Under the pieces are notes generated by a model, which saw only the letters and a program-made list of their open reading frames with translations, searched no databases and was not told where the DNA came from. Below, one piece after another: positions 1 to 64,000 of a DNA stretch of 64,000 nucleotides. Every line of letters begins with the position of its first letter. The stretch's first letter is position 1. Source of the DNA: Chthoniobacterales bacterium (GTDB lineage: Bacteria; Verrucomicrobiota; Verrucomicrobiia; Chthoniobacterales; UBA10450); the NCBI GenBank assembly GCA_038229295.1, contig JBBROO010000005.1, positions 30,514 through 94,513 of the forward strand, written 5' to 3'. Both the position numbers and the translations under genes were made by a program.

Positions 1-610
1 TGTTCGCTTCGATAAATTTCCGGAAGATCGACAACGAAGACTTGCCCGCGCTCTGCTTTGGAGCGCGGCCGCGCCGCTGGTCGTCATCAGTTTGATTCCG
101 GGCGCTGCGCCGCGTTATTCGCTGCCGGTGTTGACTCCGTTTTGTTGGTTCATGGGACTCTGTTTTGCCGCCGACGCGTTCGCGCGGCCACGCTGGCTTG
201 GAGCATTGGACAAACCAGTTTGGTCGCGGGTCGTCCCGGCCGTGGTCGTATTGTCGATGTTAGTTGGATTAGTCGGTTATCCCGTGGCGGCGAGGGCGGC
301 GCTGACGAAACGCCGCGAGAAAGTCAGGAATATTGCCGCACAGATCAATGCTGCCGTTCCGAAAACCGAAACGCTTTACGCGGTCGATCCCAATTATCAG
401 CCGTTGTTTTTTTACATGCAGTCGCCCGTTAAATATGTGTCCTCCATCGACGAACTGCCTTTTGAAACGCATTACTTTTTGGTTCGTCCGGACAATGAAC
501 AGGACGCGCTCGGGAGCGAGCAATGGGCCCCGCGAAAAGCGCACGCTATTTTGCGCGTGAAAGATTATCGCAAGCAAACCGTCATTTTGTTTGCGATCGA
601 TCCGGTCTGA
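1..610 (+). CDS. 3' part of a membrane protein gene entering from upstream of the window (possibly ArnT/PMT-type family 39 glycosyltransferase)
   Basis: Frame of ORF 92..610 stays open back to base 2; hydrophobic stretches then a soluble tail; family guess is from memory of similar C-termini, not a search. Confidence 0.4.
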   Translation, partial: VRFDKFPEDRQRRLARALLWSAAAPLVVISLIPGAAPRYSLPVLTPFCWFMGLCFAADAFARPRWLGALDKPVWSRVVPAVVVLSMLVGLVGYPVAARAALTKRREKVRNIAAQINAAVPKTETLYAVDPNYQPLFFYMQSPVKYVSSIDELPFETHYFLVRPDNEQDALGSEQWAPRKAHAILRVKDYRKQTVILFAIDPV

Positions 611-677
611 ATTTCAATTCGAGGCGGCGTGAACGCGGCGGGCGTGCGATGATCTAATAACGGAAAGCTCGGCACGC

Positions 678-1865
678 ATGGCAGACGATATACCAGAGGA
701 AAGGCGAGAGACGACCGGAAGCAAGATTCCACGATGGGCGTATTGGGTCGCGGGCGTCCTCGTGCTTTTTTTCTTACTGCGCGGTTGCTTCGGCAAGAAA
801 CAAATTTCAAGCGGGCCGCCACCCGCGCCGGTGATTGTCGATCTTGTAAAACAACAAAATGTGCCGGTGCAATTGCACGCCGTCGGTAACGTGCAGCCGT
901 TCACATCGGTCACAGTCAAGTCGCTCGTGTCCGGGCCGATCGAGAAGGTCCACTTCAAAGAAGGCCAGGACGTGAAGAAGGGCGATTTGCTTTTCACGAT
1001 CGATCCACGGCCGTTTGAAGCCGCGATGAAACAAGCGCAGGCGAATCTTGATAAGGACATGGCGCAGTCGTTGAATGCGCAGAAGGATGCGGTGCGCGCG
1101 TCAGACCTGGTCAAGAAAGGCGCGATCGCCGCGCAACAAAACGACCAGACGATTTCCAATGCGGTTTCCGAAAGCGCGACGATTCGCGGCGATCAAGCCG
1201 CGCTCGATACCGCGAAATTACAGGTCGAATACGCGTCCATTCGCTCGCCCATCGATGGACGCACCGGCGCGGTGTTAATCCACGAAGGCAACCTGGTGAA
1301 AGCGAATGATGATGCGTCGATTCTAGTCGTGATCAACCAGGTGCATCCGATTTACGTGCAGTTCTCGGTGCCGGAACAAAATCTGGACGCGATCCGGCCG
1401 CGCATGAAAGAGGGCGAGCTCGAGGTGGCGGCTAATCCGCCTAACGAGCCCGACCATATTTCGCACGGCGTGCTCACGTTGATCGACAACGCGGTCGATC
1501 AAAGTACTGGCACGGTGAAATTGAAGGCGACGTTCCCGAATGAAGACGAAGCGCTGTGGCCGGGAGAATTTGTGAACACGACGCTGACGTTATCGAATCA
1601 GGCGAATGCGATCACGGTGCCGACGAAGGCGCTGCAGCCGGGTCAGAAAGGGCAATACGTTTTTGTGGTGAAGTCCGATCAGACGGCCGAGATGCGCATT
1701 GTCGATCTTGCGCGAATCGAGGGGCCGATCGCGGTGATTAACAAAGGCGTGCAGGCGGGCGAGAATGTTATCGTGGATGGGCAGATCGCCGTTCGACCGG
1801 GCGGAAAAGTTCAGCCGAAGAATCCAGTGCCCGGCGGCGCGCCTAACAAACCAAGCCAGCCATGA
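678..1865 (+). CDS. RND efflux periplasmic adaptor (membrane fusion protein, HlyD/AcrA family)
   Basis: 395 aa, N-terminal TM helix, adaptor hallmarks (VTVKSLVSGPI, IRSPIDGRTG), ATGA overlap with the downstream RND pump. Confidence 0.85.
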   Translation: MADDIPEERRETTGSKIPRWAYWVAGVLVLFFLLRGCFGKKQISSGPPPAPVIVDLVKQQNVPVQLHAVGNVQPFTSVTVKSLVSGPIEKVHFKEGQDVKKGDLLFTIDPRPFEAAMKQAQANLDKDMAQSLNAQKDAVRASDLVKKGAIAAQQNDQTISNAVSESATIRGDQAALDTAKLQVEYASIRSPIDGRTGAVLIHEGNLVKANDDASILVVINQVHPIYVQFSVPEQNLDAIRPRMKEGELEVAANPPNEPDHISHGVLTLIDNAVDQSTGTVKLKATFPNEDEALWPGEFVNTTLTLSNQANAITVPTKALQPGQKGQYVFVVKSDQTAEMRIVDLARIEGPIAVINKGVQAGENVIVDGQIAVRPGGKVQPKNPVPGGAPNKPSQP

Positions 1866-61597: not shown

Positions 61598-62785
61598 TTA
61601 CGGCACGTCGTAAAAGCCTTCCGCGCGCAGCAGCAGGAATGTGGTGGGGCTATAAACATTGCCGCGGACGAAGACCTGGTAGAATTGAAACGCATCCGTT
61701 AGGGCGACGATGGCGATGGCCAGACATAGGATGCGCCGCGACCAATTACTCCCGCAGCGTCCGGCAAGATCGACAATCGCAAACGCGGCGGCCAGGCGAA
61801 TAAACATGTCGATGAAAAGGACGAGCCGCACATTGACGATCGGCATTTGGCCGAAAAAGAGAATGGCGCTGGCGAAATAGATGAGTGCGAGATTGCGACC
61901 ATGCCGAACGGAATCGTTAGGCGAAGTCGCGAAGCCGACGATCGACAAAATGAAAACGACTGGCGCGATGGCGAAGAAGTCGAGCAGGTAGCGGAACCAC
62001 GGGCCTTTCTCGTAATGGACGGTGTAATCGAGCGTCTGTTGGAGGGACGCGTAGGTGCGATACGTCCGGAGGAAATTGCCGACGCCGCCGCAGATCGCGA
62101 TTTCGGTCGTTAGGTAAAGCAGCGGCGCTGCGATCAACGGCAGCAGCAGCCACTTCGACGGCCGCAATTTCATTGCCCGGAAATAATATGCGGCTGCAAT
62201 CGCCATCATCGGGTAAAGCAGCACCGCAGATTCTTTCGTCAACAACGCGAGGCAAAGCGAAAGGCCGAGCGCGATAAGATCGACAATGGAACGTCGTCGC
62301 CAGCATTGGTCGAAGAAGTAAAGGCACGCCAGCATGATGACCGCGGCGAAGGTTTCTTGCGTAGCGCGGCGCGAAAGTCCGGCCGCGAGCGGCGAGGTGA
62401 TCAAAAAAATCCCGCACAAGATCGACATGTTGCGGCCGGCGAGATTTTCGGCGAAGCGCGCGCCGAGGATGACCAATGCGATTCCCGAAATGAAAGAAAG
62501 CCACGCGATATTGTCAGGAGTGAAGCCGCCGAGAATTTTGCAAGTCAGCGCCGCCGGCAAAATAAATCCGATGCGCAGCGGCAACGGCGACTTCTGCAGA
62601 TTTTCGTTAGTCGGATAATCGTGCAGGATTTGGCGAATGCCGGCGACGCCGTGATCGTTGAATGTCTGCGCGAAGACGGTATAAGCGCGCTCGTCCCAAC
62701 CGGTGCGCTTCACGCCGAACATCGTCGGCAGACGAACGGCGATCGTGATTGCCAACAGCAGCAACAGCCAGGTTCTCGAACTCAT
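61598..62785 (-). CDS. polytopic membrane protein, probably family 39-like (ArnT/PMT_2) glycosyltransferase
   Basis: 395 aa, about 10 TM helices, first loop with DERAY-type acidic motif (GWDERAYTVFAQ). Confidence 0.5.
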   Translation of the reverse strand: MSSRTWLLLLLAITIAVRLPTMFGVKRTGWDERAYTVFAQTFNDHGVAGIRQILHDYPTNENLQKSPLPLRIGFILPAALTCKILGGFTPDNIAWLSFISGIALVILGARFAENLAGRNMSILCGIFLITSPLAAGLSRRATQETFAAVIMLACLYFFDQCWRRRSIVDLIALGLSLCLALLTKESAVLLYPMMAIAAAYYFRAMKLRPSKWLLLPLIAAPLLYLTTEIAICGGVGNFLRTYRTYASLQQTLDYTVHYEKGPWFRYLLDFFAIAPVVFILSIVGFATSPNDSVRHGRNLALIYFASAILFFGQMPIVNVRLVLFIDMFIRLAAAFAIVDLAGRCGSNWSRRILCLAIAIVALTDAFQFYQVFVRGNVYSPTTFLLLRAEGFYDVP

Positions 62786-62855
62786 CGACGAGCGAGAGTA
62801 ATCTGCGAAAAGTTAATTGTCAGCACGCGCGAACTGCACTAATCGAATCTTCGCC

Positions 62856-64000
62856 ATGTCGAAAACGAATATCGCTTCCATTCGCGCGCGCGAAGTTTTG
62901 GATTCGCGCGGGAACCCTACGGTCGAAGCCGAAGTGCGACTGGAAGGTGGCGCGCTCGGTCGCGCGATTGTTCCGAGCGGCGCGAGCACGGGGGAACATG
63001 AAGCGTGGGAACTGCGCGATGGCGATAAGAAACGTTATGGCGGCAAAGGCGTCACGCGCGCGGTGGCGAGCGTGAACGAAAAAATCGCTCCCGCGATCAA
63101 AGGTTGGGACGCGTGCGATCAACGCAAGATCGACAATCACATGATCGAGATGGACGGCACGCCGAACAAAAAGAATCTCGGCGCGAATGCGCTGCTTGGA
63201 GTTTCGTTAGCCGTCGCGCATGCGGCAGCGGCTGCGCAGAATCTTTCGCTCTTTCGTTTTCTCGGCGGCGACGATGCAAAGGTTTTGCCGGTGCCGATGA
63301 TGAACATTCTGAACGCGGGCGCGCATTCCGATGCGCCGATCGATTTCCAAGAGTTCATGATTATGCCCAAAGGCGCGCCGACTTTCGCAGAAGGTTTGCG
63401 CTATGGCACGGAAGTCTTTCATGCGCTCAAAGGTGTGCTGAAAGATCGACATCTATCAACGAACGTGGGCGATGAAGGCGGGTTCGCGCCACAACTCAAA
63501 TCTGCCGACGACGCGCTCGAATCCATCGCGCAGGCAGTAGAGAAAGCCGGTTACAAATTCGGCGAAGAAATTTTCATCGCGCTCGATCCCGCTTCCTCGG
63601 AATTTTTCGACAAGGAGCAAAATGCTTACGTTTTCAAAAAATCGGATGGCTCGAAGAAGTCAGCCGATGAGCTGGTGGAGTACTATGTCGATCTTTGCGC
63701 GCGGTTCCCGATCATCTCGATCGAGGACGGATGTGCGGAGAATGATTGGGACGGCTGGAAAAAATTGACGGCGCGTCTCGGGGACAAAGTTCAACTCGTG
63801 GGCGACGATCTGTTTGTCACGAACGTGAAGTTTTTGCAGAAGGGAATCGCTGAACACGTGGCGAATTCCATTTTGATTAAAGTGAATCAGATCGGGACGC
63901 TGACGGAAACGCTGGCCACGATTGATCTCGCCACGGAAAATAATTACACGTCGGTCATTAGTCATCGCTCCGGCGAAACGGAAGACACGACCATCGCCGA
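62856..64000 (+). CDS. eno: enolase (3' end beyond the window)
   Basis: [64 protein letters not shown]; not in the ORF track because it runs off the end. Confidence 0.95.

Follow-up and report, generated by a model that had tools for sequence, protein, structure and literature searches.

What makes one short, non-palindromic word recur a hundred times in 64 kb of ordinary bacterial chromosome, on both strands and for the most part inside genes? The DNA in question, referred to below as the window, is a stretch of 64,000 nucleotides from a Chthoniobacterales contig (JBBROO010000005.1), and the word, AAGATCGACA (word 1), is spread across it from 24 to 63695 in 100 exact copies at a mean spacing of 643 bp. 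We propose that word 1, extended by a single A or T to AAGATCGACAW, could be a signal of transformation specificity that works in a soil clade of Chthoniobacterales as the DNA uptake sequences (DUS) and uptake signal sequences (USS) work in their hosts, a reading to which we give about an even chance. The force behind the word can be described more firmly: judged from the distribution of copies within the window and among its relatives, it is sequence-specific, acts on double-stranded DNA site by site, fills almost every site where a copy is cheap, holds filled sites for long periods, is not the same in sister lineages and is open to loss. Biased uptake coupled to homologous recombination, acting as a drive, is a known process with exactly these consequences, and for this reason we take it to be the most likely cause.

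The abundance of word 1 is far beyond that expected by chance. Dinucleotide-preserving shuffles of the window yield 0.23 +/- 0.45 copies, and Markov models of order 3 and order 4 predict 0.7 and 1.5. A stricter null was applied to genes, in which synonymous codons were shuffled within each gene so that the protein sequence and the gene's own codon pool were preserved; over the 56 called genes, which cover 93% of the window and underlie all in-gene counts, 90 copies are observed against 5.2 +/- 2.1 expected, with a maximum of 14. The excess amounts to ~430-fold relative to chance and 17-fold relative to the codon-aware null. An earlier sequence-only reading of this DNA had proposed a Markov and a codon-shuffled null as checks, and word 1 lies far above both. 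That reading had listed 99 copies, all at the right coordinates, and had overlooked one on the plus strand at 4180, which brings the total to 100; it had put the number of one-mismatch variants at ~45, which proved an overcount, with only 28 such neighbors found, the majority differing within the first three bases. Its description of the motif holds well. The next base (+1) is A or T in 95 of the 100 copies, and since this W is found in each reading-frame class and in all 10 copies that are intergenic or lie at a gene edge, it belongs to the motif, which is in full the 11-mer AAGATCGACAW. On the other side, C precedes the word in 55 copies, and the 12-mer GCAAGATCGACA occurs 35 times, in keeping with the one third of copies first reported. 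Past -3 and +1 the flanks carry almost no information and are unrelated among copies, again as had been said, so that the word is no transposon end. Word 1 contains both GATC and TCGA. The housekeeping genes named as carrying it were likewise confirmed, among them tilS, gltX, glnS, aroE, nuoN, nuoL, nuoG, a nuoE-nuoF fusion, nuoD and eno.

The two orientations are balanced, as claimed from the start, with 51 copies on the plus strand and 49 on the minus strand. Plus-strand copies lie at 24-33, 4180-4189, 4938-4947, 6461-6470, 8642-8651, 9793-9802 (intergenic), 10758-10767, 11486-11495 (intergenic), 12672-12681 (intergenic, upstream of tRNA-Arg), 12909-12918, 12982-12991, 13949-13958, 15683-15692, 16943-16952 (intergenic), 18414-18423, 18506-18515 (at the same site in three relatives introduced below, L241, L242 and L243), 23143-23152, 24515-24524, 25569-25578, 25767-25776, 27424-27433, 28123-28132, 28306-28315, 29346-29355, 30349-30358, 31600-31609, 33383-33392, 33838-33847, 35032-35041, 38013-38022, 39491-39500, 41317-41326, 43267-43276, 43592-43601, 44207-44216, 47801-47810, 50765-50774, 51552-51561 (intergenic), 52226-52235, 52819-52828, 54590-54599, 55121-55130, 58403-58412, 58875-58884, 59337-59346, 60680-60689, 61766-61775, 62276-62285, 62418-62427, 63126-63135 and 63442-63451. 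Minus-strand copies lie at 836-845, 1700-1709, 5172-5181, 7091-7100 (a direct pair with the next), 7106-7115, 8070-8079, 9002-9011, 9443-9452, 10940-10949, 16396-16405, 17045-17054, 21643-21652 (a direct pair with the next), 21659-21668 (intergenic), 23724-23733, 23835-23844, 24087-24096, 26454-26463, 27243-27252 (at the same site in L242, L241, L081 and L082), 28383-28392, 29930-29939, 32229-32238, 32721-32730, 32763-32772, 34554-34563, 35154-35163, 35286-35295, 35754-35763, 37475-37484, 38165-38174, 40074-40083, 40943-40952, 41244-41253, 41453-41462, 42727-42736, 45278-45287, 47414-47423, 49803-49812, 50662-50671, 51183-51192, 53136-53145, 54133-54142, 54855-54864, 56151-56160, 57013-57022, 57639-57648, 58101-58110, 58632-58641, 60184-60193 and 63686-63695.

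The order of orientations along the window is random (54 runs, with 51 expected), and no strand skew is seen in the quarters of the window or in the 17 contigs, the window included, that hold at least eight copies (chi-square p = 0.83). Because skew is absent and the order random, word 1 appears to act as double-stranded DNA, read independently of transcription. Its spacing is slightly more even than random (coefficient of variation 0.84 vs 0.98, p ~0.05); the largest gap, 3137 bp, is what random placement would give, and no word-free islands are indicated. The nearest pairs of opposite orientation are 73-122 bp apart.

Within genes, word 1 is used in six reading frames, encoding xVDL in 38 copies, KID in 21, [QEK]DR[HQ] in 12, [ML]SI[LF] in 12, xRST in six and CRSS in one, and the density of the intergenic and gene-edge copies is ~1.6 times that within genes. 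The imprint on the encoded proteins is deep. Among the 24 KID tripeptides of the window, 21 are encoded by AAGATCGAC, a share that codon usage predicts to be 11%; 38 of the 43 VDL tripeptides are encoded by GTCGATCTT, for which codon usage predicts 3%. Word 1 in this way encodes 88% of all KID and VDL in the window. Both are strongly overrepresented: KID occurs 24 times where 2.9 would be expected, and VDL, which ranks first among the tripeptides of the window's proteins, 43 times where 8.2 would be. The tripeptides next to the word-encoded ones are depleted (EID 0, VDI 1, KVD 1). In an alignment of ~5000 orthologous residues, KID and VDL together number 24-28 in the window and 4-7 in its word-less relatives, a 4- to 6-fold difference. 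An alignment of orthologs, which the sequence-only reading had suggested, shows where the copies come from: at window word 1 sites the word-less relatives have related but differing sequences, for example GAGATCGACC or CAGCTCGACG. Since these near-matches sit at orthologous positions, copies of word 1 were made in place by point substitution, sometimes at the price of an amino acid change, and not by insertion. Taken as a whole, these comparisons show that word 1 has remodelled the proteome of its host.

How far does the word extend among relatives? The window was compared with the syntenic glnS loci of eight of them, the in-group of which forms a star-like tree whose members are mutually 79-84% identical in protein. 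Over the same stretch, the window has 34 copies in 21 kb. In the in-group, at 79-84% protein identity, L243 has 16, L242 has 11, L081 has two and L082 and L001 have one each, all in ~21 kb, and L241 has 11 in ~20 kb; the outgroups L002 and L003 (~75% protein identity) have none in ~21 kb each. A genome scan of GlnS relatives supplied taxonomy and word-less relatives and no carriers; the carriers came from a protein search with contig look-ups and from a metagenome scan for doubled words. Word 1 is specific to a lineage at roughly the genus level. Where it is present, its sites are held: 10 of 13 words in L243, seven of nine in L242 and seven of eight in L241 (77-88%) lie exactly at window word 1 sites, at ~75% DNA identity. 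Viewed from the window, 24-42% of its sites are identical in carriers and 0-10% in non-carriers, with 8-9% for control 10-mers. The same holds for independent pairs of metagenome contigs, for which conservation was computed after removal of the word pairs that had triggered retrieval: word 1 is conserved at 53% against 14% for controls at 80-85% identity, and at 44% against 7% below 80% identity.

The loss of the word can be followed too. L081 (JGI Ga0372950_0000225) has two exact and 16 one-off copies, 12 of the one-offs being transitions, and retains 16 KID and VDL tripeptides, nearly the frequency of a carrier. This looks like a lineage in which the maintaining force has stopped and word 1 is decaying, with KID and VDL left behind as an amino acid fossil. 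The ratio of exact to one-off copies is 100:28 in the window and declines over 16:13 and 11:19 to 2:16. As a side observation on these loci, the nearest relative of the window varies from gene to gene across the compared region 18452-30854, being L242 for gltX, L082 for the RND pump and L243 for nadA; in glnS (75%) and gltX (67%) L002 falls outside as an outgroup, which it does not in the RND pump (82%) or nadA (85%). This gene-by-gene discordance hints at exchange or recombination between lineages and gives the uptake reading some supporting context.

Word 1 has a companion. When it is masked, the 9-mer that ranks first in the window is GCCTAACGA (word 2), which has 27 copies, all in genes and with unrelated flanks, where 0.68 would be expected from the synonymous-codon shuffles; with 52 one-off copies added, 79 sites lie within one mismatch of it, against 11.4 expected. 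Word 2 is restricted to the four frames that are free of stop codons, and its positions in the window show no coupling to those of word 1. The 13 plus-strand copies are at 1439-1447, 6774-6782, 8761-8769, 9169-9177, 24341-24349, 31479-31487, 34362-34370, 35138-35146 (same site in L242 and L082), 46929-46937, 47034-47042, 55032-55040, 56074-56082 and 58417-58425; the 14 minus-strand copies are at 4313-4321, 14791-14799, 21150-21158 (same site in L082, L081 and L001), 23006-23014, 26228-26236 (same site in L082), 29653-29661, 30042-30050 (same site in L242, L082, L081, L002 and L003), 34984-34992, 37456-37464, 41697-41705, 49133-49141, 53343-53351, 59396-59404 and 61914-61922. Word 2 is also the top 9-mer in L003 (18 copies per 21.7 kb) and in L082 (10 copies), both counted among the relatives lacking word 1, and is found in L006, L002 and L081. 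Four of the eight window copies that fall in aligned DNA have a copy at the same L082 site, and one site in nadA is common to five relatives, both outgroups among them. Because its sites are shared across lineages that include the outgroups, word 2 would seem to be the older one, spread across the clade, and word 1 a younger word of narrower range. In all these respects word 2 appears to behave like another dialect. Some metagenome contigs have both words (16 copies of word 1 and 10 of word 2 in L094, 17 and eight in L147), and L153 has word 1 alone (14 and zero). No further common words emerged from 458 kb of pooled carrier contigs with both words masked. Two 9-mers that had seemed candidates for a third word were set aside, one as part of a 42-bp tandem coding repeat with CCGGAAACA (L156, 2811-3071) and the other as part of an element of the repetitive extragenic palindrome (REP) type with AGTGTCCGC (L172, 782-2283).

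Nor is word 1 confined to this region, a possibility that the sequence-only reading had raised. When metagenomes were scanned for pairs of copies within 31 bases, at least 120 loci came back, and at least 64 metagenome contigs (461 kb in total, GC content 0.52-0.60) hold 393 copies among the matches listed. Density in these contigs ranges from 0.24 to 2.7 per kb, with L179 sustaining 2.1 per kb over 9.8 kb, and fragments of contigs of 0.4-1.6 Mb are among them. The viral sequences sampled show no enrichment: among 64 IMG/VR loci recovered by three pair-pattern scans, none has more than five copies.

We posit that a surface DNA receptor, probably tied to a type IV pilus, would bind the 11-bp double-stranded AAGATCGACAW, and that word-bearing DNA from close relatives would then be pulled in preferentially by pilus retraction, plausibly through PilT and PilU. 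Imported fragments would replace the resident allele by homologous recombination, and mutations that create or improve a copy of the word would be overtransmitted, a molecular drive; copies would accumulate where the protein tolerates them and would then be kept. The bias in uptake, the receptor, recombination as the drive and the competence of the organism are what we infer; what the sequences show is the excess of word 1, its origin in place, its imprint on the proteome, the holding of its sites in carriers and its absence or decay in relatives just as distant. The window holds candidate parts of such a machine in its pilus retraction ATPases, the only ones seen there: a predicted pilT at 37161-38258 on the plus strand (TIGR01420, 415 bits against a cut-off of 319), a pilU-like gene for a second PilT/PilU family ATPase in tandem with it at 38261-39421 on the plus strand (its start trimmed from an open reading frame at 37712-39421), and a third PilT/PilU family paralog at 5180-6475 on the minus strand (TIGR01420, 356 bits). 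Recombination occurs among abundant soil bacteria, and its strongest signal goes together with ComEC loci (PMC7305173). HIP1 of cyanobacteria, the other word known for such abundance, is reported to enhance transformation (bioRxiv 10.64898/2026.06.24.733823), which is further context for this reading. Stated in full, our proposal is that Udaeobacter-like Chthoniobacterales practice self-preferring natural transformation guided by uptake words, the first instance outside Proteobacteria, with dialects, at least two in number (AAGATCGACAW and GCCTAACGA), that arise, are maintained together and disappear on time scales of the genus level, and with a drive that has made VDL the commonest tripeptide; this composite claim we hold at slightly less than an even chance. 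As to the gene that directly follows pilU, it encodes an HNH endonuclease (39418-40113), and its ends overlap pilU and nuoN. It was considered as a word-specific nickase and rejected: its lone local homolog lies in an unrelated Desulfobacterales locus, with no link to the word.

Several observations weigh against transformation specificity as the cause. Haemophilus influenzae has roughly two exact USS copies for each one-mismatch copy, and the 100:28 of word 1 is sharper than this; direct repair or conversion would also give a sharp ratio. Conserved and saturated sites would be expected just as much under any other force that maintains a specific sequence. Two words kept in one genome are atypical for DUS and USS and would call for a pair of receptors or for a dialect that is slowly shifting. 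The window has no close inverted pairs of word 1 and no arrangements of the terminator type, its only close pairs (15, 16 and 42 bp) being direct repeats. Finally, motif searches for prepilins, secretin, DprA, ComEA, RecA and GspE-type ATPases took in the window together with 77 related loci (773 kb); the searches were crude, and in neither the window nor the related loci was a pilin (by prepilin motif), secretin, ComEA, ComEC or DprA seen. Their sole match was the pilU of the window, which makes these searches uninformative rather than negative.

If not uptake, what else could hold an 11-bp word in place? One answer, unlikely in our judgment yet deserving serious weight, is a word of the cyanobacterial HIP1 type, i.e. 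the target of a sequence-specific modification or binding activity with a role at the level of the chromosome, for example in nucleoid structure, or a self-mark that, when methylated, would protect or favor DNA entering by transformation. Word 1 is, like HIP1, hyper-abundant, intragenic and conserved between genomes (PMC5861425), shares the GATCG core with GCGATCGC, and is spaced with the slight evenness described above; HIP1 has a link to orphan methyltransferases (PMC4390886) and is reported to have an enhancing effect on transformation that depends on methylation (bioRxiv 10.64898/2026.06.24.733823). Word 1 is, however, non-palindromic and 11 bp long, and word 2 behaves in the same way without a GATC or TCGA core. 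We know of no methyltransferase with a target as long as 11 bp. The filling of 88% of KID and VDL, together with direct pairs only 15-16 bp apart, speaks for an unconditional drive at each site rather than for a need of spacing or density.

Distinctly less probable is biased repair or gene conversion inside the cell, in which a sequence-specific nuclease, nickase or mismatch protein would repair heteroduplex or damaged DNA toward the word and turn one-off sites into perfect copies with no uptake at all. This would fit the striking rarity of one-mismatch neighbors, the depletion of EID, VDI and KVD next to the word-encoded tripeptides, and the mostly transitional decay in L081, which seems to have lost the force; very-short-patch repair is a small-scale precedent for repair that shapes word frequencies. 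To our knowledge, though, no repair system has a specificity of 10-11 bp, and two words would require two such systems. Phage DNA would be equally exposed, yet no viral enrichment is seen, a weak argument because sampling of this clade's phages may be poor. For HIP1, the conservation of sites has been argued to speak against replenishment by biased repair (Xu et al., PMC5861425).

We regard as very improbable that the copies are binding sites of an abundant chromosomal protein (a nucleoid-associated protein, a condensin loader or a partition factor), each selected for its function in the cell. The dispersed, strand-symmetric and slightly even placement of word 1 and the conservation of its sites would agree with this. 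On the other hand, ~1.6 sites per kb, with 90% of them in genes at a cost in amino acids, is far beyond known systems of specific sites, density runs from ~0 to ~2 per kb between equally related lineages, L081 has lost word 1 with no obvious consequence, and an unrelated second word would need a second protein. The ordinary causes have only abundance in their favor and are refuted for practical purposes: a remnant or end of a mobile element (a REP, a miniature inverted-repeat transposable element (MITE) or a transposon) by the unrelated flanks, the 90% of copies in genes and the substitutions at orthologous sites; a polar motif of the Chi, KOPS or SRS kind by zero strand polarity in 17 contigs; a repeated peptide motif by the six frames and the intergenic copies; and an assembly artifact by the occurrence of word 1 in many independent assemblies and projects, inside intact conserved genes.

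The setting of the words is unexceptional. The window has a GC content of 56% and appears to come from a Udaeobacter-like Chthoniobacterales genome: in a species-level genome collection the nearest GlnS relatives are Candidatus Udaeobacter (79%), Spartobacteria and metagenome-assembled genomes of Chthoniobacterales, and in a protein search the closest non-identical relatives reach at most 88% identity. Its genes are ordinary chromosomal ones, encoding two RND efflux systems, tilS, gltX, glnS, aroE, proC, nadA and xth as well as nuoD through nuoN (including nuoM, nuoI and nuoH) and eno. A single open reading frame of 662 residues at 49280-51268 on the minus strand is a nuoE-nuoF fusion (NuoE match at residues 17-171, NuoF at 198-618), and in place of nuoC, nuoB and nuoA, which do not adjoin nuoD, there is an acyltransferase gene on the opposite strand. 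The gene for tRNA-Arg(CCT) lies at 12717-12789 on the plus strand; the called open reading frame at 12762-13031 overlaps it and is probably spurious, so that two copies of word 1, those at 12909 and 12982, may be intergenic, which would make ~12 noncoding copies instead of 10. Among long genes, the two RND permease genes, 1862-5008 on the plus strand and 18452-21643 on the minus strand, have the lowest density of word 1 (0.64 and 0.31 per kb, respectively, against 1.56 overall). The second permease shows its highest similarity (87%) to the word-less L082's pump, where others reach 80-83%, and may have been imported recently.

Other repeats accompany the words. Gene boundaries hold six copies of a ~30-bp interspersed repeat, TGTCATCCCGAGC(G/C)G(A/C)GCGAGGGACCTCAC, which occurs on both strands with conserved flanks (approximately 24560-24595, 27860-27895, 27930-27965, 29845-29880, 34635-34670 and 45760-45795), and is REP- or MITE-like, of another class than the words. 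The heptamer CAACG(C/T)T forms tandem arrays in intergenic DNA upstream of tilS (23567-23595), beside nuoG (49184-49265) and upstream of ispD (54340-54420); two of them stand opposite an inverted array, such that long hairpins are possible, and the arrays may be regulatory or terminator elements. L082 has a REP-like element of its own between 1709 and 21263, tgcgacggtcaNagACCGCCGCTACa, with nine copies, eight of them in four convergent intergenic pairs; this element is not present in the window.

Uptake sequences are a classic case of molecular drive shaping whole genomes and a mechanism of species-specific genetic exchange. If words 1 and 2 are indeed uptake sequences, the phenomenon would be a general one, and transformation in soil could be detected and tracked by a sequence handle, without cultivation. 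The rising, coexisting and decaying words would then form a natural series for the turnover of uptake specificity, and the receptor could be found among genes that vary with word density. The words also offer an inexpensive way to mark lineages, both when metagenomes are binned and when recently acquired DNA is to be flagged. Should uptake not be the cause, a force of a new kind, specific for 11 bp, would be acting on whole genomes.

How, then, does word 1 compare with the systems already known? The sequence-only reading had placed it with DUS, USS and HIP1-type iterated words, a placement with which its sequence-level traits agree; of the DUS and USS hallmarks examined at this level, word 1 appears to show all except inverted-pair terminators. 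That reading knew of no described element with this sequence, and our literature searches found neither word in a relevant context, nor an uptake sequence in Verrucomicrobia or Udaeobacter. The nearest known system is the DUS of Neisseriaceae, 10-12 nt long (e.g. ATGCCGTCTGAA) and bound by the minor pilin ComP. Both DUS and word 1 are short and non-palindromic, occur about once per kb, in either orientation and both inside and outside genes, combine a strict core with a looser 5' extension, come in dialects among related lineages, keep their sites in the core genome and make up ~1.6-2% of the DNA; DUS uptake depends on type IV pilus retraction, for which pilT and pilU are present in the window. 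They differ in sequence and in phylum (Betaproteobacteria vs Verrucomicrobiota), and because both differ, word 1 would have an independent origin. Membership in DUS or USS by descent is ruled out, as the GlnS kin of the host are Udaeobacter, Chthoniobacterales and Spartobacteria and not Neisseriaceae or Pasteurellaceae. DUS also form inverted-repeat pairs and serve in terminators, whereas word 1 does neither; 90% of word 1 copies lie in genes, compared with 34.5% of DUS in Neisseria meningitidis (PMC2817400); and two words reside together in the window genome, unlike the usual picture of DUS.

The USS of Pasteurellaceae, with a 9-nt core of AAGTGCGGT or ACAAGCGGT, resemble word 1 in being mostly intragenic (65% in H. 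influenzae), rather evenly spaced and divided into types by subclade, and in their origin by point substitution at tolerant sites, their use of several frames and the inflated tripeptides that result. They differ from it in taxon, in having AT-rich flanking segments where word 1 has only the single W at +1, and in the number of one-mismatch variants, which is lower for word 1. The tripeptide effect is of the same kind and several times stronger: frequencies of the tripeptides encoded by USS and DUS are roughly doubled (Findlay and Redfield, PMC2817400), with ~2-fold for USS, compared with 5- to 8-fold for KID and VDL. HIP1, which is also linked to transformation, shares with word 1 a hyper-abundance (15- to 300-fold for HIP1), an intragenic location and conservation between genomes, and in sequence only the GATCG core. 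It is a palindromic octamer, the target of orphan methyltransferases and phylum-wide, whereas word 1 is an asymmetric 11-mer at roughly the genus level, with an unrelated companion in word 2; being asymmetric and longer, word 1 is not HIP1 itself. In the literature consulted (e.g. bioRxiv 10.1101/2025.10.24.684340), uptake sequences are taken to be limited to Neisseriaceae and Pasteurellaceae, and the best reading of the present data is a third, independent system resembling them, with dialects, in a new phylum. What it would add to the two known ones is an independent origin, two co-resident dialects, a location of copies almost entirely within genes and a mark on the proteome of unusual strength.

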